Of a stretch of 64,000 nt of DNA, positions 45,156-61,001 are shown piece after piece. The first letter of the stretch is position 1; each line of letters begins with the position of its first letter. The stretch comes from Thermoanaerobaculia bacterium (GTDB lineage: Bacteria > Acidobacteriota > Thermoanaerobaculia > UBA5066), in the NCBI GenBank assembly GCA_963816185.1, contig CAWFJJ010000030.1, forward strand, positions 288,001-352,000, read 5' to 3'. The notes below the pieces were generated by a model, which saw only the letters and a list, made by a program, of their open reading frames with translations, was not told where the DNA came from and ran no database searches. The position numbers were made by a program, and so were the translations under genes.

Positions 45156-45782
45156 ATGCGCCTCGTCGCCGACAACCTCTCGCGCTCCTTCGGGCGCCGT
45201 GCCTTCGGGCCGGTCTCGTTCAGCGTCGAGACGGGTCGGGTCCTCGGCATCGCGGGAGAGAACGGGAGCGGAAAGACGACTTTGCTGAAGACCCTCGCAG
45301 GCTTGATTCGGCCAAGCGGAGGGCGCGCGAAGATCTTCTTAGATGATGAAAAGGCAGGGGATGGCCATGAGCCGCGCGATATTCCCTGGCGCATCGGGTG
45401 GGTGGCGCCGGATCTCGCCCTGTACGGAGAGCTGACGGCCGAGGAGAACCTGACCTTTTTCGAAAGGGTCCGCGGCCTCGTGTCGGATCCCGATCGGGTA
45501 CGCGCGCGGCTCGAGGGCGTCGGCCTACCGCTCGAATCCCATTCTCAGAAATCTCTCTCCTCTCTCTCCACGGGCCAACGCCAACGGGTCAAGCTCGCCT
45601 TTGCGACGCTGCACGAGCCCGACCTTCTCCTCCTCGACGAGCCGGGCGCGAATCTCGACGAGGCAGGGCGCTCCATCGTTCAGAAGGTCGTCGCGGGGCA
45701 GCGGATCCGGGGCATCACCGTGATCGCCTCGAACGACCCGCGCGATCTCGCGCTCTCGGATGAGAGAGTGACTCTCTCGTGA
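45156..45782 (+). CDS. ccmA: Heme exporter ATP-binding subunit CcmA
   Basis: GENGSGKTT, LTAEENL, LSTGQRQR, LLDEP; overlaps ccmB. Confidence 0.85.
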   Translation: MRLVADNLSRSFGRRAFGPVSFSVETGRVLGIAGENGSGKTTLLKTLAGLIRPSGGRAKIFLDDEKAGDGHEPRDIPWRIGWVAPDLALYGELTAEENLTFFERVRGLVSDPDRVRARLEGVGLPLESHSQKSLSSLSTGQRQRVKLAFATLHEPDLLLLDEPGANLDEAGRSIVQKVVAGQRIRGITVIASNDPRDLALSDERVTLS

Positions 45783-46480
45783 GCGCGCCGCGCGCGGCTG
45801 CCGGAACCGTGCCGGCGGCCATCGCCGTGCTCCGGCGGGAGCTCCTCGCGGAGTGGCGGACGCGCGTGGCCGTGAACTCGCTCTTCCTCTTCGCCTTCGC
45901 CGTGCTCGTCCTCGTCGCCTACGCCGTGGGCCCGACGCGCCTCTCGCCGGAAGACAGGCCCACCGTGAACGCCGTCCTCCTCTGGATCGTCCTTTTCTTC
46001 TCGGCGATGACGGGTCTCTCGCGCACGTTCGTTCACGAGGAGGACGCCGGCACCGCCGCGGCCCTGCGGCTGTCGGCGCCTCCATCCGGAGTCCTCCTCG
46101 GAAAGCTGCTCGCGAACGTGGCGCTGCTCGGCGCGGTGACCGCCTTCATCGTGCCTCTCTTCGTCGTCCTCATGGGCTTCGAGATCAAGGATCCGCCGCT
46201 CTTCGTCGTCCTGCTCCTGCTCGGGACATTCGGACTCGCTTCGGCGTCCACGTTCACGGCGGCTCTCGTTTCGAAGGCGAGCGCCAAAGGCGCGCTCTTC
46301 GCCGTGCTGGCGATCCCGCTCCTCCTCCCGCCTCTCGTCGGCGCCGTCCTCGCGACGCGGGTCGCGGCGACGCAGGCGGAATTCTCGGCCGGGCTCGATT
46401 TCGCGCGGCTCCTCGTCGCTTACGACGGCGTCGTCACGACGGCCTCTTTCCTGCTCTTCGACGCCGTCTGGCGCGAGTGA
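45779..46480 (+). CDS. ccmB: Heme exporter permease CcmB
   Basis: About six TM helices; RELLAEWRTR, RTFVHEEDAGT, LLGKLLAN, VLAIPLLLP. Confidence 0.88.
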   Translation: MSAPRAAAGTVPAAIAVLRRELLAEWRTRVAVNSLFLFAFAVLVLVAYAVGPTRLSPEDRPTVNAVLLWIVLFFSAMTGLSRTFVHEEDAGTAAALRLSAPPSGVLLGKLLANVALLGAVTAFIVPLFVVLMGFEIKDPPLFVVLLLLGTFGLASASTFTAALVSKASAKGALFAVLAIPLLLPPLVGAVLATRVAATQAEFSAGLDFARLLVAYDGVVTTASFLLFDAVWRE

Positions 46481-46483
46481 TCC

Positions 46484-47737
46484 GTGGCTGAAGCCGGCGC
46501 CCTTCCCGGCCTCCTCGAAGTGGCCACGATGGTCCACCTCGTTCTCGGGATGCTGCGCGCCGTCCTCGGCTCCCGCGGCACCAAGGCGAAGATCGCTTCC
46601 TTTCCGTCGTTCCTCGCGGCGACGACACCGTGGATCTTCCCGGGGACCGTCGCGGTGCTCGCCGTCGTCCTCGCCGACCTTTTCTGGTACGCCGCAGCCG
46701 GCTTTCTCCTGCGCGGCCGTGAAACCGCCCCGCCGGCGCGGCGCCCGACGCCGACGACGACGCTGCGCGTTCTCGGCGTGCGGCGCGAGACCGACGAGAT
46801 CCGGACCTTCCGGCTCGAGCGCCCGCCGGGCTTCGACTTCCAACCCGGGCAGTACCTTACGGTCGTCGTGCCCGTCGAGGGCAAGCTCGTCTCGCGCTGC
46901 TACTCGATCTGCTCTGCGCCGGACGAGACCGGGCACCTCGAGATCTCCGTGCGGCGGCAGGGCCTCGTCTCGGCGGCGCTGCACGAGAGCGTCCGCTCGG
47001 GGGGCGCGATCGCGGCGCGTAAGCCGGCCGGAAAATTCGTCTACCCGGGAGACAGCCAGCGGCCGATCGTCCTGCTCGGCGGCGGAGTCGGGATCACGCC
47101 GCTCCTCGCGATGCTCCGGCACGCGGCCGCCGCCGATCCCGGCCGTGAGGTCACGCTCCTCCTCTCCGTCCGCACGGGCATGCAGATTCCCTTCAAGGCC
47201 GAGCTCGACGACCTAGGCCGGCGCCCCGGACTGCGTGTCGTCGTCACGGCCACGCGGGGCGGCGCCGTGCCTCCCGTCCGTTCGGGCCGGCTGGACCTCG
47301 ACTTCGTGAAGCGCGAGATCCGCGACCCGGCAGCCTGCGTCTTCTGTATGTGCGGCCCCGGGGAGATGATCGAAGGTTTCAAGAAAGGCCTCCCGACGCT
47401 CGGCGTGCCGCCCGGACAGGTGCGAGCCGAGGCGTTCGAGGCAGCCAAGCACGGGCCGGGAGCGCACACGGCGGCCGGGCCCTTCACGCTCGAGCTGACG
47501 GTGAGCGGAAAGACCGTGATTGTCGCCCCCGGGGCGACGCTTCTCGAGGCGGCCGAGGCGGCGGGGGCTGACATCCCCTCGTCCTGCCGCGCCGGCGTCT
47601 GCCAGACCTGCCGGACCAGAGTGGTCTCGGGCGACGTCGACTGCCCCGCCGACTGCACCGACGACGCGGACCGGCGCGACGGCTGGATCTACCCGTGCGT
47701 CGCCTGGCCGAAGTCGAACTGCACGCTCGAAGCCTGA
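46484..47737 (+). CDS. FAD/NAD(P)H oxidoreductase with C-terminal 2Fe-2S ferredoxin and hydrophobic N-terminal extension
   Basis: FQPGQY, RCYSI, GGGVGITP, MCGP, then CRAGVCQTC...YPC. Confidence 0.88.
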   Translation: MAEAGALPGLLEVATMVHLVLGMLRAVLGSRGTKAKIASFPSFLAATTPWIFPGTVAVLAVVLADLFWYAAAGFLLRGRETAPPARRPTPTTTLRVLGVRRETDEIRTFRLERPPGFDFQPGQYLTVVVPVEGKLVSRCYSICSAPDETGHLEISVRRQGLVSAALHESVRSGGAIAARKPAGKFVYPGDSQRPIVLLGGGVGITPLLAMLRHAAAADPGREVTLLLSVRTGMQIPFKAELDDLGRRPGLRVVVTATRGGAVPPVRSGRLDLDFVKREIRDPAACVFCMCGPGEMIEGFKKGLPTLGVPPGQVRAEAFEAAKHGPGAHTAAGPFTLELTVSGKTVIVAPGATLLEAAEAAGADIPSSCRAGVCQTCRTRVVSGDVDCPADCTDDADRRDGWIYPCVAWPKSNCTLEA

Positions 47738-47874: not shown

Positions 47875-47924
47875 TTCGGGAGCAGATTCCGGATTTTTGA
47901 AAGGAGTACAGGGGATTGGACTAC

Positions 47925-48902
47925 GTGGCGAACCCGAAGAAGGGTACCCGTCGGATCTCCGCCTCGCCTCCAACATTCCTCGGTCCCTCCTCCGTCGTCC
48001 CGACGCTCACTGCCGCACGCGCCGCCTCCGCGAAGGTGAAGCGCGACGCCTGGCTTCCGATGGCCTCCCTCTCGCACGCCCTCGCCCTCGCATTCCTCGT
48101 GAGCCTCGGCCTCGTCGCCTTCGTGTTCGTGAAGCTGGGCGGATGGCAGTACTACTTCGCTCCGGAGGCGACACGCGGCTACATCCCGGCACACAAGCTC
48201 CTACACCCCGCCGGGCGCGCCGGCGAGATGTTCGGGATCGCGGGCCTCCTCATCATGTGCATGACCCTCGTCTACGCCGCGCGCAAGAAGTTCCGCGGCC
48301 TCTCGAAGATCGGCACGACGAAGACCTGGCTCGAGATCCACATCTTTTGCGGCCTCGTGGGTCCCGTGCTCGTGACGCTCCATACCGCGATGAAGTTCAA
48401 CGGCGTCGTCTCGATCGCGTACTGGTCGATGATCCTCGTCGTCCTGTCCGGCTTCATCGGGCGCTATCTCTACGTGCGGATCCCGAAGACGCTTCGCGGG
48501 ACCGAAATCTCTCTCGAGGAGCTCGACGCGCGCGCCATCGAGCTCAAGGGCCAGCTCGCGGCCGAAGGTCTTGCGACCGTCCTTCTACGCCGGATCGAGG
48601 AGCTCGAGCAAGGTTCACGCTCGGGGGGCTTCATCCTCGGGGACTTCAGGCTCGGACGAGGACTCGCTCAGCTCCACAAGGAGCTCGCTCAGGCCGGTAT
48701 TTCGCCTACGCGCCTCGTCGCCGCCGACCGGCTCATCCGCGAGCGGGTGACGCTTCTCAGGCGCATCGCGACGCTCGACACCTCCAAGAAGCTCTTCCAC
48801 CTCTGGCACGTCTTCCACAAGCCGTTCGTCTACGTGATGCTCGCGATCGCCGCGGTCCATGTCGCGGTCGCGCTGTACTTCGGCTACGCGGGCCACTGGT
48901 GA
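47925..48902 (+). CDS. Inner-membrane protein, putative di-heme cytochrome b (ferric-reductase-like TM domain)
   Basis: About five TM helices with two H-x13-H pairs (HIFCGLVGPVLVTLH and HKPFVYVMLAIAAVH); GTGA overlap with the cytochrome gene. Start uncertain. Confidence 0.7.
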   Translation: MANPKKGTRRISASPPTFLGPSSVVPTLTAARAASAKVKRDAWLPMASLSHALALAFLVSLGLVAFVFVKLGGWQYYFAPEATRGYIPAHKLLHPAGRAGEMFGIAGLLIMCMTLVYAARKKFRGLSKIGTTKTWLEIHIFCGLVGPVLVTLHTAMKFNGVVSIAYWSMILVVLSGFIGRYLYVRIPKTLRGTEISLEELDARAIELKGQLAAEGLATVLLRRIEELEQGSRSGGFILGDFRLGRGLAQLHKELAQAGISPTRLVAADRLIRERVTLLRRIATLDTSKKLFHLWHVFHKPFVYVMLAIAAVHVAVALYFGYAGHW

Positions 48903-51900
48903 GGGCACGCCTCCTCGGGCTCGCGTCGGTCCTCGCTTCGCTCGTGCTGGCGGCACACGCGGACGCGCAGGGCCTCGGGACCCTCGTCTCCCCTGGCAAG
49001 CTCTCGAAGGCGCACGCGAACCTCGAAGGCCTCGACAAGTGCCAGACCTGCCACGAGCCGGGCCGCCAGGTCACCGCCGCCAGGTGTCTCGCCTGCCACA
49101 AGCCCGTCGCCGAGCGCATCAAGGCGAAGAAGGGAGTCCACCGGAACGCCACGGGCGACGACTGCGCGAGCTGCCACGTCGAGCATGCAGGTCTCGACGG
49201 AGACCTCCGTCACTTCACGCCGAAGGGCTTCGACCACACGGGCGAGGCCGGGTTCGCTCTCGACGGCCTCCACGCGCCGCTCGAGTGCAATACCTGCCAC
49301 AAGACACGCTCGTACCTCGGCCTCTCCGCGTCGTGCGCCTCCTGCCACAAAGACGTCCACAACGGGACTCTCGGCGCAACGTGCCAGACGTGCCACGCGA
49401 CGAGCGTCGCCTTCAAGGACACGCGAAAGGGGTTCGACCACTCCCGGACGAAGTACCCGCTGACCGGCGCCCACACGAAGACTCCCTGCGAGAGCTGCCA
49501 CAACGTCAAGGGCGAGTACCGAATCGCGCGCTTCGCCGTCTGCGAGGGCTGCCACAAGAACCCCCACCAGCCGGCGCTCGGGACGTGCACGACGTGTCAC
49601 GTCACGACGAGCTTCAAGGAGCCCGCTGAGGGCCGGAGGTTCGACCACGCGAAGACGGGCTATCCGCTCCGCGGCCGCCACGCGAGCGTCGCCTGCCAGA
49701 CGTGCCACGTGAAGCCGGCGACGGTCGTGCGCCTCAGGTACGCGCGCTGCGCCGACTGCCACCAGGACGTCCACAAGGGCCTCTTCCCCCGCGAGGATTG
49801 CGCGTCCTGCCACACGGAGAGCGGGTTTGCGCCCGCGAAATTCGATCATGGGACGCGCACGAAGTTCCCCCTCGACGGCAAGCACGCGGCCACGCCTTGC
49901 CTTGCCTGCCATAAGCAGGCGGGAGCACAGGTGCGTGCTCCCCGCGCGCAGCGGGTCGTCGACTTCCGCGGCGCGAAGGCGGCGTGCGCCTCCTGCCACA
50001 AAGACGCCCACAAGGGGAAGCTCGGCTCGAGCTGCCAGACCTGTCACGGAACGACCTCCTTCAAGGTTTCGGAGTTCCGGCACCCGCGCCAGCCCGAGTT
50101 CTTCGAGGGCGCGCATGCGGGCGTCGCGTGCGAGAAGTGCCATCTCCCGGAGCCGGCGTCCCGAACCGACCTCGCGAAGGGCGCCGCGGCACCCGCGGCC
50201 GCGCGGCAGTACAGAGGCGTGTCGTTCCAGTGCGCGAGCTGCCACAAGGACCCGCATCTCGGGCAGGTGGGTCCGGACTGCGCGGCGTGCCACAGCCTCG
50301 CGACGAAGGGCTACAAGCCCGACCTCTTCGTCCACACGCGCGCGAAGTTCGCGCTCACGGGCAAACATGAGACGGTCCCTTGCGCGAAGTGCCACGCGAA
50401 GGAGACCGGGACGTTCCCCGCGGGCAAAGGCACGGCGGTCCGCCTCACGGGCCTCTCGACGGAGTGCCGAACCTGCCACAAGGACCCGCACCTCGGGCAG
50501 CTTTCGCCGCGCTGCGAGACGTGCCACGACGCCGCATCGTTCCGGATCGCGAAGTTCACGCATCCCGCGAAGAAGGAGACCGAGGGCTTCTTCGTCGGCA
50601 AGCATGCGGCGATCGCATGCGCCGAGTGCCACCCGAAGGAGACGATGGATTACCCCGCGGGCCGCGGAACCGCCGTTCAATATTCGGTCCCGGTCGATTG
50701 CGCGCACTGCCACGAGGACGCGCACAAGGGCGCCTTGGGGCGCGACTGCGCGTCCTGCCACAACGCGAACCAGTGGCGGACCGCCTCGCGCGCCTTTCAC
50801 AAAACAGCCGCCTTCTCGCTCGAGGGCAAGCACATCTCGGTCCCGTGCGCGTCCTGCCACCTGAAAGGCGTCCTCAAGGGCACGCCCACGGGCTGCTACG
50901 ACTGCCATTGGATCCGCAAGCCCGACGACCGCTTCAAGACGAAGCTCGGGAGCGACTGCCAGACGTGCCACCGGCCGATCGGCTGGACCGCCGTCACGTG
51001 GAGCCACACGTCCGCGACGGGATTCACGCTCGAGACGCCCCACAAGACGCTCGACTGCGAGTCCTGCCACAAGAGTCAGGTCTTCCCGGGGACGCCCCGG
51101 GACTGCTACTCCTGCCATCGGGCGGACTACGAGCGCGTCCAGAACCCGAACCACGTCGCAGGCGGCTTCCCGACGGATTGCACCGGTTGCCACAAACCGA
51201 CTGCCCCGACGTGGCGGGGCGCGACGTTCACCCACGCGACCTTCCCGCTCGCCGGCGTCCACGCGACGCAGGCCTGCGCCTCGTGCCACGTGAACAACAT
51301 CTACAAGGGAACGCCGCGCGACTGTTTCTCCTGCCATCGGACGGACTACCAGAATTCGAAAAACCCGCCCCACGCTGCCGCCGCGTTCCCGACCACGTGC
51401 GACTCGTGCCACAAATTCTCCGATCCGAACTGGCAGGGCGCGGGTTTCAACCACAACTCGGCGACGACGTTCCCGCTGGTCGGGCCGCACGTCACGGCGC
51501 CGTGCGCAAGCTGCCACGTCAACGGCAACTACACGACCGTCCCGACGACCTGCTACGGCTGCCACCAGAAGGACTCGGCGGGCGCCACGACTCCGGTGAA
51601 CCATTCCGGCCTGCCGACGACGTGCGAGAGCTGCCACAAGAACACGGACACGACCTGGCTGCTGGCGACGGCCTTCAACCACTCGACGTACTTCGCGCTG
51701 GCCGGCGCCCACGTCACCGCAGCTTGCGCCCAGTGCCACACGAACGGCAACTTCACGACCCTGCAGTCGACCCCGACGCCTTGCGCGACCTGCCACCAGA
51801 ACGACTACAACACGGCGAAGACGCCCGTGGACCACGTCGCGTCAGGCTTCTCGACCACCTGCGACTCGTGCCACAAGTTCTCCGACACGACGTGGATGCA

Positions 51901-53931
51901 GGCGACGTTCAGCCATACGACCTTCCCGCTGGTCGGCGTGCACGCGACGACGCCCTGCGCGACGTGCCACAACCCCCCGTATGCCCCTTCAGCCAACAAC
52001 TACACGACCGTCCCGACGACCTGCTACGGCTGCCACCTGAAGGACTCGGCGGGCGCCACGACTCCGGTGAACCATTCCGGCCTGCCGACGACGTGCGATT
52101 CCTGCCACAAGAACACGGACGCGACCTGGTCGCTGGCCACGGCCTTCAACCACTCGACGTACTTCGCGCTGGCCGGCGCCCACGTCACCGCAGCTTGCGC
52201 CCAGTGCCACACGAACGGCAACTTCACGACCCTGCAGTCGACCCCGACGCCTTGCGCGACCTGCCACCAGAACGACTACAACACCGCGAAGACGCCCGTG
52301 GACCACGTCGCGTCAGGCTTCCCGACCAACTGCGACTCGTGCCACAAGTTCTCCGACACGACGTGGATGCAGGCGACGTTCAGCCATACGACCTTCCCGC
52401 TGGTCGGCGTGCACGCGACGACCGCCTGCGCGAGCTGCCACGTCAACAACAACTACACGACCGTCGCGACGACCTGCTACGGCTGCCACCAGAAGGACTC
52501 GGCGGGCGCCACGACTCCGGTGAACCATTCCGGCCTGCCGACGACGTGCGATTCCTGCCACAAGAACACGGACGCGACCTGGTCGCTGGCCACGGCATTC
52601 AACCACTCGACGTACTTCGCGCTGGCCGGCGCCCACGTCACGGCGCAATGCGCCCAGTGCCACACGAGCGGCAACTTCGTCAGCGTGCCCAAGAGCCCGT
52701 GCTCGGCGTGCCACCAGAACGACTACAACAACGCGAAAACGCCGGTGAACCACATCGCGTCGAGCTTCCCGACCACCTGCGACTCGTGCCACAAGTTCTC
52801 CGACGCGACGTGGATGCAGGCGACGTTCAGCCATACGACCTTCCCTCTCGTCGGCGTACACGCGACGACCGCCTGCGCGAGCTGCCACGTCAACAACAAC
52901 TACACGACCGTCGCGACAACCTGTTACGGCTGCCACCAGAAGGACTCGGCGGGCGCTACGACTCCGGTGAACCATTCCGGCCTGCCGACGACGTGCGACA
53001 GCTGCCACAAGAACACGGACGCCACCTGGCTCTTGGCCACGGCCTTCAACCACTCGACGTACTTCGCGCTGGCCGGAGCCCACGTCACGGCGGCCTGCAC
53101 CCAGTGCCACACGAGCGGGAACTACGTCAGCGTGCCCAAGAGCCCGTGCTCGGCGTGTCATCAGACGGACTACAACAACGCCAAGACGCCCGTGAACCAC
53201 GTCGCGTCGAGCTTCCCGACCACCTGCGACTCGTGCCACAAGTTCTCCGACGCGACGTGGATGCAGGCGACGTTCAGCCATACGACCTTCCCGCTGGTCG
53301 GCGTGCACGCGACGACGCCCTGCGCGAGCTGCCACGTCGCCAACAACTACTCCACCGTCCCGACGACCTGTTACGGCTGCCACCAGAAGGACTCGGCGGG
53401 CGCCACGACTCCGGTGAACCATTCCGGCTTGCCGACGACGTGCGACAGCTGCCACAAGAACTCGGACACCACCTGGCTGCTGGCGACGGCCTTCAACCAC
53501 TCGGCATACTTCGCGCTCGCTGGCGCCCATGTCACGGCGGCCTGCACCCAGTGCCACAACCCCCGAAGCGCGAAAACTACGTCAGCGTGCCCACGAGCCC
53601 GTGCTCGGCGTGCCACCTCCCCGCCTACCAGACCGCGACGACTCCCGTGAACCACATCGCGGCGGCCTTCCCCACGACCTGCGACACGTGCCACAAGTTC
53701 TCCGACACGACGTGGCTGCAGGGCGTCTTCAACCACACGTACTTCCCGCTGGTCAGCAATCACAACGTGCCGTGCAACCAGTGCCACACCACCGCCGGCA
53801 CCTACGCGGTCTTCAACTGCATCAGCTGCCACACGGCCGCCAAGACAAACGGGGATCACTCGGGCGTCAAGGGCTATGTGTGGGCGTCGACGGCCTGCTA
53901 CTCCTGCCACCCGAACGGACGAGGCGGCTGA
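48899..53931 (+). CDS. Giant multiheme cytochrome c, 66 CxxCH, about 1677 aa (one frameshift at 53560-53564)
   Basis: GTG start, Sec signal ending ADA-Q; 61 CxxCH counted in the 47897..53650 frame plus 5 in the 50380..53931 frame; C-terminus CYSCHPNGRGG. Confidence 0.92.
51467..53745 (+). repeat. Five tandem near-identical hexaheme-coding repeats (447-471 bp)
   Basis: GGACTCGGCGGGCGC recurs at 51571, 52042, 52495, 52942 and 53389; boundaries approximate. Confidence 0.92.
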
Positions 53932-55217
53932 TGCGCCGCCGCCTCGCGATTCTCGCGGCCCTCCTAGTCCTGAGGGCCCCGGCCGCGGCGCAGTCCGCCC
54001 TCGACCTCGGCCGCATCGCCGTGTTCGGCCAGGTCCTGCGGTCGAAGAACGACGACGGGACGACGACGGCCTACAACGAGCTGACCGCTTCGGTCACGCT
54101 CCACACGCCGCCGCGCGACACAGACGGGGTCGAGTTCTCGATCGACGCGCGCGGCTCTGAGTACCCGTCCGTCGCAAACCGCGATCCGCACCTGACCGTC
54201 TATGACGCCTGGGTCGGCGGGCATCTCGCGGGCGGCCACCTGGCCGTGCGGCTCGGTCAGATGTACCTGAACGACCTCGGTGCCCTTGGAGGCGTGGGCG
54301 GTGCCGCGCTCGAAGGCCGAACCGGTAAGGTCCGGTTCGGCCTCTTTGGCGGCCTCGAGCCGAAGGGTTTCGACGCGGGCTACGTCGCGGATGTCAGGAA
54401 GGGCGGTGCGTACGTCGCTTATGACGGGGAGCGCGGCTGGCACGACGCCCTCGGTTTCGTCACGATCCGCGACCAGGGACTCGTTGAGCGGAATGTCCTC
54501 TCGACGACGAACTTCATCCCGGTCGGCAAAGAGTTCTTTCTCTACCAGGCCGCCGAGTACGATCTGACCGGGCCGGGAGGCGTCGGGAGCGGCGGCCTCG
54601 CCTACGTCTTCGCGACGGCCCGCTGGGCCCCTGCCAGGACGTTCGAGATCCAGGGCCAGTACCAGCACGGGCGCTCGATCGACGCGCGCTCGATCACGCA
54701 GGACCAGCTCGCGGGCCGCCCGGTGGACGCGAAGAGCCTTCAAGGTTTTCTCTTCGACTCGATGGGCGGGCGCGCGACCGTGGAGTTTGCCCGCGGCTGG
54801 CGGGTCTGGGGCGGCTACTACCAGGACAAGAACAATCGCGACGACATCGCGTCGAACCGCTGGCAGTTCGGCCTGTCCGCGATGAACGTCCTCGGGTCGG
54901 GGTTCGATGCATTCGCCTCGGACAACCGGACGATCCGCCCGGGAAGCTCCAGCTACGACGCGTGGTACTTCTCTCTCGGGCGCAGCCTCGGCTCCCGTCT
55001 CTACCTGACCGTGGACTACTCGACCTCGCTGTCCGTGCTGCAGCTGACCGATTCGGGGGGCCTCACGGTCGTGAACCGGCCCTCCTCGAGACGCTACAGC
55101 CTCTCGGGAACGTTCAACGTCACTCGCGCGTTCTCCGTCTTCGTGACGGCCGAGCAGCTCGTCGACGACACGTCGAAGGAGAACCGGGGCCTCTTGGGCC
55201 TATCGTTCCGTTTTTGA
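53931..55217 (+). CDS. Outer-membrane beta-barrel, putative porin partner of the cytochrome
   Basis: TGATG coupling to the cytochrome stop; signal peptide; alternating aromatic/Gly beta-strands; C-terminal GLSFRF. Confidence 0.8.
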   Translation: MRRRLAILAALLVLRAPAAAQSALDLGRIAVFGQVLRSKNDDGTTTAYNELTASVTLHTPPRDTDGVEFSIDARGSEYPSVANRDPHLTVYDAWVGGHLAGGHLAVRLGQMYLNDLGALGGVGGAALEGRTGKVRFGLFGGLEPKGFDAGYVADVRKGGAYVAYDGERGWHDALGFVTIRDQGLVERNVLSTTNFIPVGKEFFLYQAAEYDLTGPGGVGSGGLAYVFATARWAPARTFEIQGQYQHGRSIDARSITQDQLAGRPVDAKSLQGFLFDSMGGRATVEFARGWRVWGGYYQDKNNRDDIASNRWQFGLSAMNVLGSGFDAFASDNRTIRPGSSSYDAWYFSLGRSLGSRLYLTVDYSTSLSVLQLTDSGGLTVVNRPSSRRYSLSGTFNVTRAFSVFVTAEQLVDDTSKENRGLLGLSFRF

Positions 55218-55244: not shown

Positions 55245-55946
55245 ATGGGGAGCGGGCATCCGGGCGTTATGATCCTCGCCGTGAAGACCCTCGGTTTCGC
55301 CGGCAAGTGGTTCCTGGGACTCGGGATGGCTGTGATTTGCTGGGCCGCCTTCCTCTGGGCCCGTCCCGCCCAGAACTTCGTCGGCGAGTCCTCGAGGATC
55401 GTCTTCTTCCACGTGCCGATGGCGTGGGTATCCACGCTCGCTTTCTTCCTCGCCGCCTGGCATTCGGCCGTCTATCTGAAGAACCGCCGGATCGAGAACG
55501 ACGACGCCGCGGCCGGCGCGGCGCGGCTCGGTTTCGTGTTCTGCGTTCTGGCCACGGTCACCGGCTCGATCTTCGCCCGCGTGATGTGGAACTCGTACTG
55601 GAACTGGGACCCCCGCGAGACGTCCATCGTGCTCCTGCTCCTCGTGTACGGCGCGTATCTCGGCCTGAGAGGCGCGCTCGAGGACCCCGAACGTCGCGCG
55701 ACGCTCTCGGCGGCGTACGCGCTCGTGGCGGTCGTGACCGTTCCTTTCCTGACTTTCGCCGTCCCCCGCATGTACCAGTCGCTGCATCCCGACACCGTCC
55801 TCAACGCGCGAGGAAAGGTCGAAATGTCCGCGGACATCCAAACCGTTTTCTTCTCCTCCATGGTGGCTTTCATGATCTTGTTCTTCTGGATGTGGAATCT
55901 CGACCGGCGGGTGTCCCGTATCGTCCGCGAGAGGGCGACGGCGTGA
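55245..55946 (+). CDS. ccmC: Heme exporter / cytochrome c biogenesis protein CcmC
   Basis: FFHVPMAW, WNSYWNWDPRET (WWD motif), SLHP; start may be 55269 or 55281. Confidence 0.9.
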   Translation: MGSGHPGVMILAVKTLGFAGKWFLGLGMAVICWAAFLWARPAQNFVGESSRIVFFHVPMAWVSTLAFFLAAWHSAVYLKNRRIENDDAAAGAARLGFVFCVLATVTGSIFARVMWNSYWNWDPRETSIVLLLLVYGAYLGLRGALEDPERRATLSAAYALVAVVTVPFLTFAVPRMYQSLHPDTVLNARGKVEMSADIQTVFFSSMVAFMILFFWMWNLDRRVSRIVRERATA

Positions 55947-56071
55947 GCGGGGCTCTCGGGTACGTCGCGGCGGTCAACATCGTGATCTGGGCCGGAATCT
56001 TCGGCTACCTCGTCTATCTCGACCGGAAGGTCCGGGCCGCCTCGGGGCCCGGGCAGGAGAAACCCCGATGA
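55943..56071 (+). CDS. ccmD: CcmD-like small membrane protein (42 aa)
   Basis: MSGALGYVAAVNIVIWAGIFGYLVYLDRKV..., overlapping the ccmC stop and the ccmE start. Confidence 0.75.
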   Translation: MSGALGYVAAVNIVIWAGIFGYLVYLDRKVRAASGPGQEKPR

Positions 56072-56466
56072 AACGTGCTTACTGGGCCGGCGCCCTCCTC
56101 GTCGTCGGCTTTCTCGCCCTCGGTCTGTCCACGTTCACGCGCTCGATGACGCCTTACGTCTCCTTCGCCGAGGCGAAGGCCGCGCCGCGCACGGTCCAGG
56201 TGATGGGCGCCCTCGAAAAGGGCACGTCGCGTTACGACACAGCCTCGAAAACGCTCTATTTCACGCTCCTCGACCCGAAATCGCACGAGTCGATTCCCGT
56301 CTCCTACACGGACGTGAAGCCCGCGAATTTCGAGGACGCCGTGTCCATCGTGGCGATCGGCCGGTACGAGGGCGGCGTCTTCGCCGCAGAGAAGCTTCTC
56401 GTCAAGTGCCCGTCCAAGTACCAGGGCGAGGAAATCGAAAAACAGTACGGCGCCAAAAAGGCCTGA
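56068..56466 (+). CDS. ccmE: Heme chaperone CcmE, CxxxY variant
   Basis: TM anchor, KPANFE, LLVKCPSKY. Confidence 0.9.
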   Translation: MKRAYWAGALLVVGFLALGLSTFTRSMTPYVSFAEAKAAPRTVQVMGALEKGTSRYDTASKTLYFTLLDPKSHESIPVSYTDVKPANFEDAVSIVAIGRYEGGVFAAEKLLVKCPSKYQGEEIEKQYGAKKA

Positions 56467-56475
56467 GGACACCCC

Positions 56476-58929
56476 ATGAACAATCTCCCCGGAATTCTCG
56501 GCTTCGCGCCGGGCACGCTCGCGATTTGGGCGGCCATGCTCTTCGGCGTCACGTGCATGCTCGCCTACCTGCGTTCGATGCGCAGCACGGGATTCGCAGC
56601 CGGGGATTTTCTTAGAAAGGGTAAGAGGGGCTCCCGTGCGGTCGCAGCAACGGCCGATCCGGGCGACCTATTACCATTCGAAGAAAATTCTCTTTCTCCT
56701 AATCTCTTCTTCGCCCGGCGCCTGTATTACGCCTACGTCTTCTCGGTCCTTCTCGCGTCGTTCCTCCTTCTGACGCGGCTCCTCTCGCACGACTTCCGCA
56801 TCTCATACGTGGCGTCGTACTCGGGGCGCGACCTGCCGTTCTATTACCTCTTCTCGACGTTCTGGGCAGGGCAGGAGGGCTCGTTCCTGCTCTGGCTCTT
56901 CTGGGGCGCGCTCATCGGGCTGTTCGTTCTGAGGTCCGCGAAGGAGCAGGAAGCTCCCGTGATGGTGATCTACGTCGCGTCGTTCCTCGGAATCGTCGCG
57001 ATCCTCGTCAAGCAGTCGCCGTTCCGGTTCCTCGCGCAGATCCCGCCGGACGGCCAGGGCCTGAACCCGCTCCTGCAGGACCCGTGGATGGTCATCCACC
57101 CGCCGGTCATGTTCTCTGGGTTCGCGTCCCTCTCGGTGCCGTTCGCGTTCGCGATCGGCGCGCTCTGGATGAAGCGCTGGGACGGCTGGGTCGTCCGCGC
57201 CATGCCGTGGGCGCTCTTCACGTTCGTCACGCTCGGCACCGCGATCCTGATGGGCGGGTATTGGGCCTACAAGACGCTCGGCTGGGGCGGCTACTGGGGC
57301 TGGGATCCGGTCGAGAACACGTCCCTCGTGCCATGGCTCGCGACGGTCGCGCTCGTGCACGGAATGTTCCTCCAGAAGATGCGCGCCAAGCACCGCAAGA
57401 TCAACATCATTCTCGCGATCCTCGCTTTCTGCTGCATCCTGTACGGCACGTTCCTGACTCGCTCCGGAGTTCTCGCGGACTTCTCCGTTCACTCCTTCAT
57501 CGATCTCGGGATCACCGGGTGGCTCGTCGGGATCATCGTCGTCTTCCTCGTCGGCGGCCTCGCCCTCCTCGCATGGCGCTGGAAGGAGATCCCGGTCGTC
57601 TCCGACCTGGACGCGACGACCGGCAAAGAGAAGGAAGAGCCGTTCCTGTCACGGTCGGTCCTCTTCATCCTCTCCGTGACGCTCTTCTGCGCCTCGGGCC
57701 TCGTCATCCTCCTCGGGACCTCGGCTCCGATCCTGACGCGTGTCCTGGGCAAGCCCTCGCAGGTCGCGACGAGCTTCTACAACGTCACGCACCGGCCGAT
57801 CGCGGGTCTCATGGCCCTGCTTCTCCTTCTCGTGCCGTACCTGTCATGGCGCGGCGAGAACGGAAAGGGCGTCCTGAGAAAGGCCCTCGTCCCGGGCGCC
57901 GTGGGACTCCTCAGCGTCGGAGTCTTCTTCTCGGCGGGCGTGCGCGGGGCGGGCGACCTCCTGATCCTCGCTCTCGCGGTGGCCGGGTTCGTCGCGAACG
58001 CCGAGACCGCGGTCCTCTTCGTGAGGCGCAGGGCCGTCAAGACCATGGGCGGATATCTCGCGCACATCGGCATGTCGATCATGCTCGTGGGCATCCTCAT
58101 CTCGGGCGTCTACGAGAAGAAGACGACGGTGAACCTCTTCAAGAACCAGCCGGTCACCGTCGGGAGCAACACCTTCACGTTCACGCGCACCGTCTTCGTC
58201 ACGGACAGCGGCGAGGTGAAGCGTTTCGAGGAGCTCAACGCGGCCGACCCCTCCGACCGCCGCGCCAAACAGGCGATGGAGGTCGAGGTTTCGTCGCCCG
58301 GGCGCAGCGTCTGGAAGGCCTATCCGAAGCTCTACACGAACACGCGCACGAACCAGATGATGGCGAACCCCGACGTGAAGTCGTCGCCGCTCATGGACCT
58401 CTACGTCTCCCCGCAGGCTTACGACCCGGGGCGATCCGCGCACATCGAGGGCACGACGCTCGCCCTGAGGAAGGGCGAGTCGAAGACCGTCGACGGCGTC
58501 AAGGTGAAGTTCCTCGACTTTTCCGCCGACCGCTCGCAGGTGTCGTCGGACCGGCCGCGAGTCACCGTGACGGGCAATTTCCTCGTGACGACCGCCGAAG
58601 CCTCCGAGGAGAAGACCGCCCGGCTCGTCATGTACTTCGGCGGAGCGTCGGCGGAGTCCGCGACGGAGTCACCGGAGACGCCTCTTCCCGGAAAAGGCCG
58701 CTTGAAGATTCTCAAGGTGTCGCCGAACGAAGGCACATGCGAGATCGAGCTCCTCGGTGTCGCTCCGGGCGGAGACCTCAAGCCGGCGACGGCCGAGACC
58801 TTGTCCGTCGACCTCACGACGAAGCCGCTGATCTCCCTCGTGTGGGGAGGCTTCTACGTGATGATGGCGGGCGGCCTCCTGGCGCTCGTGCGCCGCGCCC
58901 GCGATTCGCGCCAGGCGGCGATCGCCTAG
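56476..58929 (+). CDS. ccmF: Cytochrome c heme lyase CcmF
   Basis: WAGQEGSFLLW, GLNPLLQDPWMVIHPP, WGGYWGWDPVEN, SVHSF, YLAHIG, KPLISLVWGG. Confidence 0.93.
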   Translation: MNNLPGILGFAPGTLAIWAAMLFGVTCMLAYLRSMRSTGFAAGDFLRKGKRGSRAVAATADPGDLLPFEENSLSPNLFFARRLYYAYVFSVLLASFLLLTRLLSHDFRISYVASYSGRDLPFYYLFSTFWAGQEGSFLLWLFWGALIGLFVLRSAKEQEAPVMVIYVASFLGIVAILVKQSPFRFLAQIPPDGQGLNPLLQDPWMVIHPPVMFSGFASLSVPFAFAIGALWMKRWDGWVVRAMPWALFTFVTLGTAILMGGYWAYKTLGWGGYWGWDPVENTSLVPWLATVALVHGMFLQKMRAKHRKINIILAILAFCCILYGTFLTRSGVLADFSVHSFIDLGITGWLVGIIVVFLVGGLALLAWRWKEIPVVSDLDATTGKEKEEPFLSRSVLFILSVTLFCASGLVILLGTSAPILTRVLGKPSQVATSFYNVTHRPIAGLMALLLLLVPYLSWRGENGKGVLRKALVPGAVGLLSVGVFFSAGVRGAGDLLILALAVAGFVANAETAVLFVRRRAVKTMGGYLAHIGMSIMLVGILISGVYEKKTTVNLFKNQPVTVGSNTFTFTRTVFVTDSGEVKRFEELNAADPSDRRAKQAMEVEVSSPGRSVWKAYPKLYTNTRTNQMMANPDVKSSPLMDLYVSPQAYDPGRSAHIEGTTLALRKGESKTVDGVKVKFLDFSADRSQVSSDRPRVTVTGNFLVTTAEASEEKTARLVMYFGGASAESATESPETPLPGKGRLKILKVSPNEGTCEIELLGVAPGGDLKPATAETLSVDLTTKPLISLVWGGFYVMMAGGLLALVRRARDSRQAAIA

Positions 58930-58952
58930 ACTCTCCCTCTCGAGGAGAACCC

Positions 58953-61001
58953 ATGAAATCAGTCTCGTCCGCTCTCGCTGTCTTCGCGTTGGCTGCCCTC
59001 GCCGTCCCGCTCGCCGCCCTCGCCCAGCCCGCCGCGCCCGCGAAGCCGAAGGCGCTCGATCCCGCGAACTTCGACACGTCCGTCAAGCCGTGCGAGGACT
59101 TCTACGAGTATGCGAACGGCGCGTGGCTGAAGACTCATCCCATCCCCGCCGACCGCGCGCGCTACGGATCCTTCGACGAGGTCTCGGACCGCAACCGCGA
59201 GGTCCTCAGGAAGATCCTCGAGGAGACCTCGGCGAAGAACGACTGGCCGAAGGGATCGAACGAGCAGAAAGTCGGCGACTTCTACGCCGCCGGGATGGAC
59301 GAGGCCGCGATCGAGAAGGCGGGGACGAAGCCTCTCGCGCCGTTTTTCGCCGCGATCGACAAGCTGAAGGCTCCGGGCGACCTTCCCGCGGTGCTCGCGG
59401 AGCTCCATACCCGGGGCCTCGAGGCCGGATTCAACTTCCGCGTCGCCCAGGACGCCCGGAAGAGCACGCGGTACATCGGCATCCTGAACCAGGGTGGCCT
59501 CGGCCTTCCCGACCGCGACTACTACACGAAGGACGATGCGAAGTCGAAAGGCCTCCGCGAAGCCTACCGGAAGCACGTCGCGAAGATGTTCGAGCTCTCC
59601 GGAGACTCTCCCGAGAAGGCGAAAGAGTCCGCGGACGTCGTGATGGCGCTCGAGACGAAGCTCGCGGAGCCCGCGCTCACGCGCGTCGAGAACCGCGATC
59701 CGCAGAGGACCTACAACAAGAGGACGCTCGCCACGCTCGTCTCCGAGGCGCCGGGCTTCGACTTCCCGCGCTTTTTCACCGACCTCGGCGCGTCCTCCGC
59801 CACCGAGGTGAACGTCAGGCAGCCGCGCTTCTTCGTCGCGTTCGGCGAGCTTGCGCGCACGGTTCCCGCCCAGACGTGGCGGACGTACCTGAGATGGCAC
59901 GTTCTCCGGCAATCCGCGCCTTATCTTGCGAAAGCCTTCGAGGAGGAAGCCTTCGCGTTCAGCGGGAAGACCCTGATGGGCGTTCCGGAGCAGGAGCCGC
60001 GCTGGAGGCGAGTCCAGGCCGCGACGGACCAGGCTCTGGGCGAGGCCCTGGGGCCTCTCTACGTGGCACGCGCCTTCACCCCGCGCGCGAAAGAACGGAT
60101 GCGCGTCCTCGTCGAGAACCTGCGCGCCGCGCTCATGGAGCGGATCGATGCCCTGCCGTGGATGAGCGCCGAGACGAAGAAGCAGGCCCAGCGAAAGCTC
60201 GCCGCCTTCAACGTGAAGATCGGGTATCCCGACAAATGGCGAGACTACTCGTCCCTCCCGATTTCACGCGCGTCGTATCTCGAGAACGTGTGGAACGCCC
60301 GCACCTTCGAGACGAGGCGCAACCTCGCGAAGCTCGGCAAGCCCATCGACCGGACGGAGTGGGGCATGACGCCCCCGACGGTGAACGCCTACTACAACTC
60401 CACGATGAACGAGATCGTCTTCCCAGCGGGGATTCTCCAGCCTCCTTTCTTCTCCGAGGACGCCGACGACGCCGTGAACTACGGCGGGATCGGCGTCGTC
60501 ATCGGCCACGAGATGTCCCACGGCTTCGACGACTCCGGCAGCCAGTACGACGCGGACGGGAACCTCAAGAACTGGTGGACGCCCGCCGACCGGAAGGCTT
60601 ACGACGCCCGCACGGCTCTCGTCGTGAAGCAGTTCGACTCCTACAAGCCGCTCCCCGACCAGGCCATCAACGGCAAGCTCACGCTCGGAGAGAACATCGG
60701 CGACCTTGGCGGCATCAAGATCGCCTACGCGGCGCTCCAGAAGGCGCTCGCAGGGAAGCCGCACACCGCGATCGACGGTTTCACGCCGGAGCAGCGCTTC
60801 TTCCTCTCGTTCGCGACGATCTGGCGAAACCACTCGCGAGACGAGGCCCTTCGTGTCCAGCTCAACACGAACCCGCACAGTCCCGGCAAGTGGCGCGCCA
60901 TAGGCCCCACCTCGAACCTGCCGGAGTTCTACGACGCGTTCGGCTGTGCGGAGGGGGCTCCCATGCGCCGCGCGGAGGCCGAACGGCCGAGCATCTGGTG
61001 A
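58953..61001 (+). CDS. M13 family metallopeptidase (neprilysin/ECE-like), exported
   Basis: GAGGAG RBS, signal peptide, PCEDFYEYANG, VNAYY, GHEMSHGFD, GENIGDLGG. Confidence 0.93.
   Translation: MKSVSSALAVFALAALAVPLAALAQPAAPAKPKALDPANFDTSVKPCEDFYEYANGAWLKTHPIPADRARYGSFDEVSDRNREVLRKILEETSAKNDWPKGSNEQKVGDFYAAGMDEAAIEKAGTKPLAPFFAAIDKLKAPGDLPAVLAELHTRGLEAGFNFRVAQDARKSTRYIGILNQGGLGLPDRDYYTKDDAKSKGLREAYRKHVAKMFELSGDSPEKAKESADVVMALETKLAEPALTRVENRDPQRTYNKRTLATLVSEAPGFDFPRFFTDLGASSATEVNVRQPRFFVAFGELARTVPAQTWRTYLRWHVLRQSAPYLAKAFEEEAFAFSGKTLMGVPEQEPRWRRVQAATDQALGEALGPLYVARAFTPRAKERMRVLVENLRAALMERIDALPWMSAETKKQAQRKLAAFNVKIGYPDKWRDYSSLPISRASYLENVWNARTFETRRNLAKLGKPIDRTEWGMTPPTVNAYYNSTMNEIVFPAGILQPPFFSEDADDAVNYGGIGVVIGHEMSHGFDDSGSQYDADGNLKNWWTPADRKAYDARTALVVKQFDSYKPLPDQAINGKLTLGENIGDLGGIKIAYAALQKALAGKPHTAIDGFTPEQRFFLSFATIWRNHSRDEALRVQLNTNPHSPGKWRAIGPTSNLPEFYDAFGCAEGAPMRRAEAERPSIW

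Follow-up and report, generated by a model that had tools for sequence, protein, structure and literature searches.

A gene for a c-type cytochrome with 66 CxxCH heme-binding motifs lies in a 64,000-nucleotide (nt) stretch of DNA from a Thermoanaerobaculia bacterium (GCA_963816185.1, contig CAWFJJ010000030.1, positions 288,001 to 352,000), which is referred to here as the window and has a G+C content of 64–72%. The gene is the third of four that share one strand, with overlapping stops and starts; the others encode a membrane-anchored FNR-like reductase, a five-helix inner-membrane protein, and an outer-membrane beta-barrel. We read the four genes as a trans-envelope electron conduit of the type known as PCC3 to which an NAD(P)H-type reductase has been added, and we consider it reasonably likely that the cytochrome serves such a conduit, with electrons flowing outward. 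The four genes and the features within the cytochrome gene are the following.

46484..47737, + strand: membrane-anchored FNR-like reductase, 417 amino acids (aa); Pfam FAD_binding_6, NAD_binding_1, and Fer2, all above cut-offs.
47916..48902, + strand: inner-membrane protein, 328 aa (start uncertain), five predicted helices; from hydrophobic segments and a 40-sequence alignment.
48899..53557, + strand: multiheme cytochrome, main frame, with signal peptide and hemes 1–61 (61 CxxCH), thereafter out of register to a stop at 53650; from motif count and Pfam.
48899..50761, + strand: N-terminal part of the cytochrome (residues 1–621, hemes 1–24), rich in charged residues, a separate 24-heme gene in other lineages; from alignments and composition.
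50771..53931, + strand: C-terminal part (residue 625 to the end, hemes 25–66), charge-poor, Thr/Ser/Ala/Gly-rich and repetitive, a separate second gene elsewhere; from alignments and composition.
51464..53754, + strand: tandem DNA repeat with a 447-bp unit (six hemes), 5.0 copies, 89% matches; from Tandem Repeats Finder.
53558..53577, + strand: frame break in the cytochrome gene; 17 nt separate CAC (His) from AAC TAC, against 27 nt (NPPYAPSAN) or 9 nt (TSG) in relatives.
53575..53931, + strand: C-terminal piece of the cytochrome, read in the second frame, with hemes 62–66 (five CxxCH) and a conserved nonrepeat tail; from motif count and alignments.
53931..55217, + strand: outer-membrane beta-barrel, 428 aa, with signal peptide and C-terminal RF; from AlphaFold2, Foldseek, and VIA-align.

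The 66-Heme Cytochrome

The cytochrome gene starts with a GTG codon at 48899, with a 4-nt overlap with the stop of the gene upstream, and its N-terminus resembles a signal peptide. A regular-expression search for C..CH in all six frames of the window retrieved 61 motifs (49040–53557) in the frame of the open reading frame (ORF) 48899–53650 and five more (53602–53910) in the adjacent + frame, which is open up to the stop at 53929–53931, giving a total of 66 across both frames. The other four frames contain no C..CH motif anywhere in the 64 kb, which excludes a chance origin of the cytochrome motifs; the sole extra motif of the window, at 57833, lies within ccmF. The first piece of the cytochrome (1553 aa) contains 122 Cys, exactly two per motif, along with 125 His and 5 Met, and 64 of these His fall outside the motifs, compared with 61 hemes. 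Within the host genome the gene is an outlier, as the other 22 ORFs with at least four CxxCH motifs carry no more than 11 each. Pfam detected Cytochrome_C7 in 17 stretches (E 1.3e-71; 236.8 bits, cut-off 24.8), Cytochrom_CIII (142.8 bits), Cytochrom_c3_2 (126.1 bits), and MtrC-MtrF_II-IV. By these family models, which score above their curated cut-offs, the protein is assigned to the class III cytochromes c (c3/c7 superfamily; PF14522, PF02085, PF14537).

Motif-by-motif layout of the cytochrome yields 22 units of three hemes each. About 32–36 aa containing F-x-H and G-x-H precede the first C..CH of a unit, 15–29 aa separate it from the second, and 16–26 aa with one His lead to the third. When 79 four-module segments of the window and 13 related loci are aligned, every one of the twelve C..CH motifs is invariant or at least 90% conserved, as are the His of G-x-H and P-x-x-H and three of the four F-x-H His, the first F-x-H His staying under 90%. 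Three conserved spare His per module would allow bis-His ligation throughout. The ligand order in all 22 units (His, His, CxxCH, CxxCH, His, CxxCH) differs from that of the twelve-heme protein GSU1996 (3ov0), in which, as aligned, the third distal ligand comes before the second CxxCH and none is found between the second and third; in our reading no cyclic shift of the module equates the two orders. Despite its Pfam matches to the c3/c7 superfamily, the unit is, judged by its ligand order, not a c7 domain.

A profile of the cytochrome matched solved structures weakly, the best being nine-heme cytochrome c, GSU1996, and HmcA (E 1e-4 to 1e-3). An AlphaFold2 model of four modules (window 51413–52345), built from the 79-segment alignment, reached a mean predicted local distance difference test (pLDDT) of 69.6 and a predicted template modeling score (pTM) of 0.39, which is low to middling confidence. 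Searched with this low-confidence model, Foldseek returned nothing at E ≤0.001 (best rows: HAO, E 3.7, and MtrA, E 4.3), and VIA-align gave no Z of 2 or above among 48,161 chains.

The Reductase, the Membrane Protein, and the Barrel

The reductase begins with an N-terminal region of about 90 aa that contains two or three hydrophobic segments (two of them at residues 6–24 and 44–62). Next come an FAD-binding domain and an NAD(P)H-binding domain, with a 2Fe-2S ferredoxin domain at the C-terminus. H18, P49, W50, W68, and the four cluster cysteines are invariant in 12 sequences, and the FNR-type motifs are the usual ones.

The membrane protein downstream displays two Wx3Hx13H motifs, on helices 3 and 5, and an SGxxG motif on helix 4. 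Invariant in 40 sequences are W138, H142, and H156 of helix 3; S178, G179, and G182 of helix 4; and W297, H298, H301, and H315 of helix 5. Its Lys/Arg-rich loops lie on one side, and the positive-inside rule would place one His pair near each face of the membrane. From this pattern, the protein is probably a di-heme b transmembrane electron carrier. None of its 513 relatives carries a Pfam domain; a profile of the family matched only coiled-coil designs among solved structures, and these within the cytoplasmic loop, while the ESM Atlas held unnamed clusters only. A predicted complex of the reductase, the membrane protein, two hemes, and a 2Fe-2S cluster scored 0.01 against a mark of 0.32, a result that counts neither way.

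The same five-helix Wx3Hx13H domain also occurs in a second context. A fusion protein of about 745 aa (L128–L131; L033:12882-15179, − strand) combines an N-terminal helix, a 4Fe-4S dicluster domain, and a pyridine-nucleotide-disulphide-oxidoreductase domain with the five-helix domain, and in L033 this fusion adjoins the cytochrome. Four of five same-genus genomes without the split genes at the site carry the fusion, and the host genome carries the split reductase/membrane form only. That two different NAD(P)H-type heads are found on one membrane domain beside the cytochrome is the best argument for cytoplasmic pyridine-nucleotide input. The membrane part of the fusion matches PepSY_TM weakly, under its cut-off (E ~1e-3).

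The barrel gene overlaps the cytochrome stop by 1 nt. Its AlphaFold2 model (mean pLDDT 88.7, pTM 0.78) has 24 strands by DSSP and no plug. Foldseek placed the 24-strand FimD usher barrel first, followed by OprB, AlgE, and Occ porins (E 1e-9 to 1e-7), and the top VIA-align matches were the barrels of SusC-like and TonB-dependent transporters (Z 19.1, 333–358 residues aligned). The two structure searches match the protein best to barrels of 22–24 strands. No Pfam family was retrieved even at E 10, and the barrel family is small, with 188 representatives at E ≤0.001 among 1.84 billion.

A Module Conserved across Acidobacteriota

The reductase, membrane protein, cytochrome, and barrel genes form one module conserved across Acidobacteriota. 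An alignment-based search with the membrane protein against contigs from one genome per species identified 262 relatives, the best 80 of which were examined as loci. All of these best 80 come from metagenome-assembled genomes (MAGs), labeled, apart from two noted below, Thermoanaerobaculia, Vicinamibacterales/Vicinamibacteria, Holophagales/Holophagae, Terriglobia, Sulfomarinibacteraceae, or plain Acidobacteriota. The reductase gene is directly upstream of the membrane-protein gene in every one of the 80 loci. In 77 of them a CxxCH run begins 150–250 nt past the membrane gene, and of the other three, two are contig ends. The barrel is found in 54 of the 80. The flank is cut in 21 of the 26 loci without it, and in one more the barrel lies just past the flank. 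Where enough sequence is available, the barrel follows the cytochrome in 55 of 59 loci. A separate set of 15 fetched loci has a heme-rich ORF directly upstream of the barrel in each case. As a side observation, two of the 80 loci (L088, L103), in records labeled as Bifidobacteriaceae or Bifidobacterium breve MAGs, contain the full module, probably through a binning or labeling error.

Fusion of Two Cytochromes and Variation in Length

Two cytochromes that other lineages encode separately are fused in the 66-heme chain. In L066, L067, and L104, the first cytochrome ORF aligns with the window protein from residue 2, 3, or 11 up to residue 621 (45–51% identity), and the second cytochrome ORFs of six loci (L066, L067, L088, L104, L127, L073) align from residue 611–625 onward (45–49% identity). 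In L066, L067, and L104, the two-gene loci with both genes aligned, each cytochrome has its own signal peptide. In the window protein the two cytochromes meet at a link of three residues that follows heme 24. The two parts also differ in composition, Lys, Arg, Glu, and Asp making up 23% of residues 22–690 versus 8% of residues 691–1553, and Thr, Ser, Ala, and Gly 34% of the N-terminal part versus 42% of residues 691–1553. Among the 80 loci, 28 have a first cytochrome ORF with exactly 24 motifs followed by a second cytochrome ORF, and 14 have one uncut cytochrome ORF with at least 37 motifs. By Rosetta-stone logic, the fusion into one chain suggests that the two cytochromes work end to end. The split in composition mirrors the periplasmic and extracellular cytochromes of PCC3, as these are described in passages of He et al. 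(2017).

The family spans a wide range of sizes. A word-indexed search recovered 1319 proteins at E ≤0.001 among 8000 candidates scored; the 120 matches listed are all cytochromes, of 1039–2440 aa with 41–97 motifs, and those named among them bear Thermoanaerobaculia, Acidobacteria, Holophagales, or Ignavibacteriaceae labels. Orthologs range from 23 to 137 motifs. The largest (L058:8434-18477, with L133; genome G061, contig C24) is a single open frame of 3434 codons with 137 CxxCH, positioned after the reductase and membrane-protein genes and before the barrel gene; its units follow a strict 33/16/25 and 32/16/25 spacing. Large motif numbers also appear in the literature: He et al. (2017, PMC5566968) reported cytochromes with 63 and 85 motifs, Arbour et al. 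(2020) described 24- and 49-heme proteins before a porin as possible wires or capacitors, Wasmund et al. (2024) found more than 100 motifs in Bacteroidota, and a 2025 preprint states that genome mining reveals more than 100 hemes while the largest solved single-chain structure has 16. A 66-heme gene by itself is no longer surprising as a sequence observation.

The Repeat Array and the Frame Break

The last third of the cytochrome gene is the tandem array of the 447-bp repeat, and near its end the reading frame is interrupted between CTQCH (53543–53557) and NYVSV (from 53575). Four database homologs (P0004, P0007, P0010, P0011) pass this site in one frame, several of them reading NPPYAPSANN, and the C-terminal piece of the window gene aligns to their C-termini. 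This piece is also present in all 15 fetched loci at 50–86% identity. The reads were checked through short contigs (≤760 nt) from four metagenome runs, in which contig joints skipping 1.5–3 kb with sides of 21–28 letters were disregarded and uncovered bins were given no weight. Contigs from the soil-metagenome runs X1 (605 nt) and X2 (321 nt) bridge the site at about 97–98% identity with ten extra letters, which restore a single open frame. In X3, a run where 16 of 27 aligned contigs match the window at 99% identity or more, one contig connects 53119 with 53575 in the short TSG form, also in frame. The 17-nt version of the site was seen in no aligned contig of the four runs.

In our reading, the frame break is a consensus error at a site of variable length, or else a lesion specific to the strain, and the heme count of the intact form is unaffected. 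A consensus error is suggested because the break lies where near-identical strains hold two in-frame variants. Programmed frameshifting was considered and dropped, as relatives read through in one frame with differing lengths at the site. The cytochrome is likewise frame-split in three of seven homologs examined and in six of 14 complete related loci. A single intact cytochrome ORF of 51–72 motifs is present in eight related loci, and independent assemblies from the same genus have 57–81 motifs. Contigs identical to single repeat units were placed at 51688–52098 and 52612–52799; contigs of ≤760 nt do not bridge the array and the bin 52211–52394 is uncovered, so these contigs settle the reading of the break in relatives, whereas the repeat number is that of the assembly. 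Breaks in the repetitive part of these genes are common (L031, L032, L036, L039, L043, L044; P0005, P0006, P0012), and database entries therefore often understate their heme counts.

Much of what the original prediction had read from this DNA is borne out by these analyses. The regular-expression count reproduces its 66 CxxCH motifs as 61 plus 5, its coordinates for the gene are correct, the frameshift that it placed in the cytochrome gene is present in the assembly, and its statement that the protein lacks a catalytic domain agrees with Pfam, which finds c7/c3/MtrC-type heme domains only. A single secreted chain of triheme modules is supported by the signal peptide and the 22 units, three spare His per three hemes by the layout of these units together with the 79-segment alignment, and a ligand order unlike that of c7 by the His between the second and third CxxCH, the third distal ligand of GSU1996 coming before the second. 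The rarity that it implied is not supported, given hundreds of family members with 41–137 motifs.

Comparison with Known Systems

The closest counterpart of the window set is the PCC3 gene cluster (He, Barco, Emerson & Roden 2017, Front Microbiol 8:1584, PMC5566968), compared here by passages of the published description. PCC3 combines an outer-membrane barrel with repetitive, Thr/Ser/Ala/Gly-rich cytochromes (median 21 and 34 hemes, up to 63 and 85). The inner-membrane protein that PCC3 shares with PCC4 has about 300 aa and five helices, helix 4 bearing SGxxG and helices 3 and 5 bearing Wx3Hx13H, and the authors argued that it binds two b hemes in the manner of FRD/NOX or cytochrome b (PMC5566968). 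This description fits the window protein exactly, a likeness by description rather than by sequence. The adjacent outer-membrane barrel likewise has its equivalent in the window, as a 24-strand model, and the two many-heme cytochromes are both present as halves of one chain, their cell locations being predicted. Differences are also apparent. PCC3 has two cytochromes, whereas the window has a single fused chain; PCC3 was described in Proteobacteria, and the word "Acidobacteria" appears nowhere in the main text of PMC5566968; and the PCC3 passages present a quinone link and Fe(II) oxidation with no NAD(P)H reductase, whereas here an FNR-like 2Fe-2S reductase is invariably adjacent. Matched by published description and taken in its gene context, the window set would be a PCC3-type cluster with an added reductase. 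Giant cytochromes and such gene sets have already been described from genomes, and the feature in the window is real.

Other systems combine similar parts differently. The ptdABCDEFG/PCC4 operon (bioRxiv 10.1101/2023.11.21.568154, Elbon, Stewart & Glass; PMC5566968), likened here by the descriptions in passages of both sources, encodes a porin, multiheme cytochromes, an FAD/NAD(P) oxidoreductase, an Fe–S protein, and a ferric-reductase-like membrane protein; its three cytochromes are small (5, 4, and 10 hemes) rather than giant and repetitive, and its hosts are marine Proteobacteria, Nitrospirales, and Planctomycetes. In NOX, ferric reductases, and MsrQ, a flavin dehydrogenase feeds two stacked b hemes on Hx13H pairs and electrons move outward (passages of PMC5566968). 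Here both Hx13H pairs are present, but the components are separate proteins with a 2Fe-2S cluster between them, the helices number five rather than six, and the acceptor would be a chain of c hemes instead of O2, an Fe(III) chelate, or MsrP.

Among multiheme cytochromes, GSU1996 of Geobacter sulfurreducens is likewise a single chain of tandem triheme units with about 25 aa per heme, and its profile similarity to the window protein is weak (E 4.3e-4 over 176 profile positions). It contains 12 hemes rather than 66, and the ligand order differs as described above. One heme per domain of GSU1996 has His-Met ligation, while the window protein has the 5 Met counted above in 1553 aa. GSU1996 is periplasmic and, to our knowledge, has no dedicated barrel or membrane partner. 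The best profile matches among solved structures are the nine- and sixteen-heme cytochromes of Desulfovibrio (1ofw, 19hc, 1z1n; E 1.7e-4 to 1.5e-3), which have CxxCH-CxxCH-His-CxxCH in the same order as the window module over only about 50 matched positions. These cytochromes are built compactly from c3-like tetraheme domains. MtrCAB of Shewanella and the porin–cytochrome complexes of Geobacter embody the same idea of a heme chain insulated by an outer-membrane barrel. The cytochrome matched the MtrA/DmsE model TIGR03508 with 72.8 bits against a cut-off of 192.2, and MtrC domain II/IV weakly; no MtrA or MtrB family cut-off was reached, and MtrB was absent among the structure matches listed for the barrel of about 24 strands. 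The MtrCAB and Geobacter systems are fed by quinol dehydrogenases and are not known to be fed by an NAD(P)H flavoprotein.

Proposed Electron Path and Competing Explanations

We favor, as reasonably likely, the reading that the c-type cytochrome encoded here belongs to a PCC3-type trans-envelope conduit with the following outward path. The membrane-anchored flavoprotein would oxidize cytoplasmic NAD(P)H and pass single electrons through FAD and its 2Fe-2S cluster to a b heme on the cytoplasmic side of the five-helix protein. This protein would move them across the inner membrane on two b hemes bound by its two Hx13H pairs, the second of which would reduce the first cytochrome hemes. The 66 c-type hemes, all potentially bis-His, would conduct the electrons onward, with the first 24, in the charged N-terminal part, bridging the periplasm and the remaining 42, in the low-charge Thr/Ser/Ala/Gly-rich part, located in or beyond the plug-less barrel. 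GSU1996 holds 12 hemes in about 12 nm, a figure taken from the original prediction, and on this scale 24 hemes would come close to the width of the periplasm. Suitable acceptors would be insoluble or polymeric, for example oxides of Fe(III)/Mn(IV) or humic material, and so many hemes may also buffer charge. Pyridine-nucleotide input and energetics make it most likely that electrons flow outward, regenerating NAD(P)+ without the quinone pool and with no energy conserved at this step. Heme b binding, the electron partners, the direction of flow, the location of the cytochrome parts, and their shape are all what we infer from the genes and their neighbors.

Several observations weigh against this reading. 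The set is known here from genes alone, the cytochrome gene is broken in the window assembly, the module model is of low to middling confidence, and the passage of a fused chain through the outer-membrane barrel presents a difficulty. The membrane protein reaches no Pfam cut-off, its best candidates being Ferric_reduct (PF01794; 14.2 bits versus 28, E 0.047), DUF4405 (E 0.051), and Ni_hydr_CYTB (E 0.69), and hhalign gave a probability of 2.5% when it was compared with two MsrQ-type (PF01794) proteins of relatives. Of 61 related genomes, only 22 have the barrel, 14 of these being among the 28 other members of the genus. In three loci (L057, L075, L116), the reductase and membrane protein are accompanied by a 23-heme cytochrome, but no barrel lies within 10 kb; in another (L065), both are present but the membrane gene is not followed by a cytochrome. 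Most same-genus genomes contain the cytochrome–barrel pair without the split reductase and membrane genes, and one of the five such genomes tested (G014) has no copy of the membrane domain at all. The host also has three heme-copper-oxidase-family genes and a bd oxidase, oxygen reductases that imply that the conduit is not essential to it; it is perhaps one option among several, possibly for redox balance under fluctuating oxygen. Finally, passages of He et al. (2017, PMC5566968) propose the opposite direction for PCC3, with Fe(II) oxidation and a quinone link.

That published model supports an inward conduit, in which electrons from extracellular Fe(II), Mn(II), or reduced humics would reach a quinone or the reductase through the membrane protein: PCC3 occurs in Fe(II) and Mn(II) oxidizers and is drawn inward to the quinone pool (passages of PMC5566968), and the oxygen reductases of the host could accept such electrons. 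The invariable partner in 80 of 80 loci, however, is an NAD(P)H/FAD/2Fe-2S protein, and by our reasoning from established bioenergetics, reducing NAD(P)+ with electrons at the level of Fe(II), moved inward against the membrane potential, would be uphill. No feature of a quinone site was found, though no test aimed at one was made; we consider this direction quite improbable. Export of NAD(P)H electrons could instead serve iron acquisition, detoxification, or the generation of reactive oxygen species, as in a nonrespiratory NOX/FRE-like reductase. The parallel in architecture to NOX, ferric reductases, and MsrQ systems (passages of PMC5566968) speaks for such a function, as does the presence of the module in Vicinamibacterales-labeled lineages and in a host with oxygen reductases. 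Chains of 23 to 137 hemes nevertheless far exceed the needs of such an enzyme, and the module shows no genes for siderophores or iron uptake, making this function very unlikely.

Two further explanations concern the cytochrome itself. It could be a wire or capacitor confined to the periplasm, folded back or compact, that stores charge while the barrel serves for anchoring or for solutes. A chain of 66 bis-His-type hemes without a catalytic site would suit this role, and the 23-heme sets of L057, L075, and L116 manage with no barrel within 10 kb. Against it, the barrel gene overlaps the cytochrome stop codon and follows the cytochrome in 15 of 15 and 55 of 59 loci, and the C-terminal 42-heme part, 8% charged versus 23% in the N-terminal part, resembles the extracellular cytochromes of PCC3 (passages of PMC5566968); we regard periplasmic confinement as unlikely. 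The original prediction had made the protein a non-polymerizing wire or electron capacitor that could be tens of nanometers long, an extended wire being one possible shape of the chain and a globule another. It missed the fusion of two cytochromes and the neighboring reductase, di-heme-type membrane protein, and barrel, and these neighbors point to a trans-envelope conduit rather than a free periplasmic capacitor. The gene of this particular genome could also be a pseudogene, or the assembly could render it wrongly, with an error in the frame or an incorrect repeat-unit count. The break at 53558–53577 in a form shared with no aligned contig, the similar splits in six of 14 complete related loci, and a repeat array unbridged by short contigs with one bin uncovered all fit this possibility. 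The two in-frame variants at the break site in near-identical strains suggest a consensus error, eight related loci have the single intact ORF, and the repeat units differ by about 11%, with contigs identical to individual units at two places; we regard this explanation as improbable.

A stronger version of the outward conduit would make one continuous polypeptide wire span the envelope: the 24-heme part would dock on the di-heme b protein, the chain would thread the barrel, and the 42-heme part would project for tens of nanometers, fed by NAD(P)H without quinones. This would amount to a monomeric, cell-anchored nanowire whose length evolves by units of three or six hemes, a picture that we find doubtful. 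If true, more than 100 hemes' worth of chain would project from the cell in the case of the 137-heme ortholog.

Neighboring Genes and the Cytochrome c Maturation Operon

The four genes are flanked on the same strand by genes of System I cytochrome c maturation (ccm), in the order ccmA, ccmB, reductase, membrane protein, cytochrome, barrel, ccmC, possible ccmD, ccmE, ccmF.

45156..45782, + strand: ccmA-like ABC ATPase, first gene of the ccm cluster; NCBIfam ccmA TIGR01189, E 5.9e-33, 114 bits, under the 131.6 cut-off.
45779..46480, + strand: ccmB (heme exporter permease); Pfam CcmB, E 4.8e-22; NCBIfam ccmB, E 1.8e-12, under cut-off.
55245..55946, + strand: ccmC; Pfam Cytochrom_C_asm, E 2.9e-27; NCBIfam ccmC, E 1.5e-32, under cut-off.
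55943..56071, + strand: possible ccmD, a small ORF with one hydrophobic segment; translation reading only.
56068..56466, + strand: ccmE; Pfam CcmE, 68.4 bits, the single match in the genome; NCBIfam CcmE models, E 3.2e-12, under cut-offs.
56476..58929, + strand: ccmF/nrfE-family heme lyase, 817 aa; Pfam Cytochrom_C_asm and CcmF_C; NCBIfam nrfE, E 1.7e-83, under cut-off.

CcmC, CcmE, and CcmF of this cluster are the only ones found in the host genome (94.9% complete), which places the four genes inside the housekeeping cytochrome-maturation operon. A second maturation system dedicated to the 66-heme protein was considered and rejected on the same grounds, together with the finding of no ResB in that genome. 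The heaviest heme consumer and the machinery that attaches heme may, with the module between ccmB and ccmC, share one transcript. Nesting within ccm genes is found in nine of ten same-genus loci and in none of five loci from other genera; CcmA is upstream of ccmB in eight of the 15 fetched loci, and ccm genes were seen in only two of the 80 further loci.

A few observations concern the wider surroundings. Family models cover the CcmF homolog only to about residue 575 of 817, leaving the last ~240 residues unexplained. Directly after ccmF (58950–61000, + strand) is an M13-type metallopeptidase-like gene with a signal peptide and HExxH, by translation reading only. Elsewhere in the host genome (G000, contig C1, about 519.9–538.1 kb), a second cytochrome cluster contains ORFs with 10, 4, 6, 11, and 5 CxxCH motifs, and the third Cytochrom_C_asm-family gene of the genome, a 296-codon frame, is located about 10 kb upstream of this cluster.

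Implications

No description of the invariable NAD(P)H/2Fe-2S reductase, of the single-chain fusion, or of the nesting in the ccm operon in this genus was found in the literature searched, the supplements of which may hold some. PCC3-type clusters are known so far from genomes and not from experiments, and the four-gene system is conserved in at least 262 species-level genomes. The family makes testable an exit of electrons from NAD(P)H that bypasses the quinone pool, the use of a single polypeptide as a wire across the periplasm and outer membrane, and the tuning of wire length by repeat number. Its carriers are abundant, mostly uncultured Acidobacteriota of soil and sediment, and the system may therefore matter for the redox cycling of iron, manganese, and humic matter.

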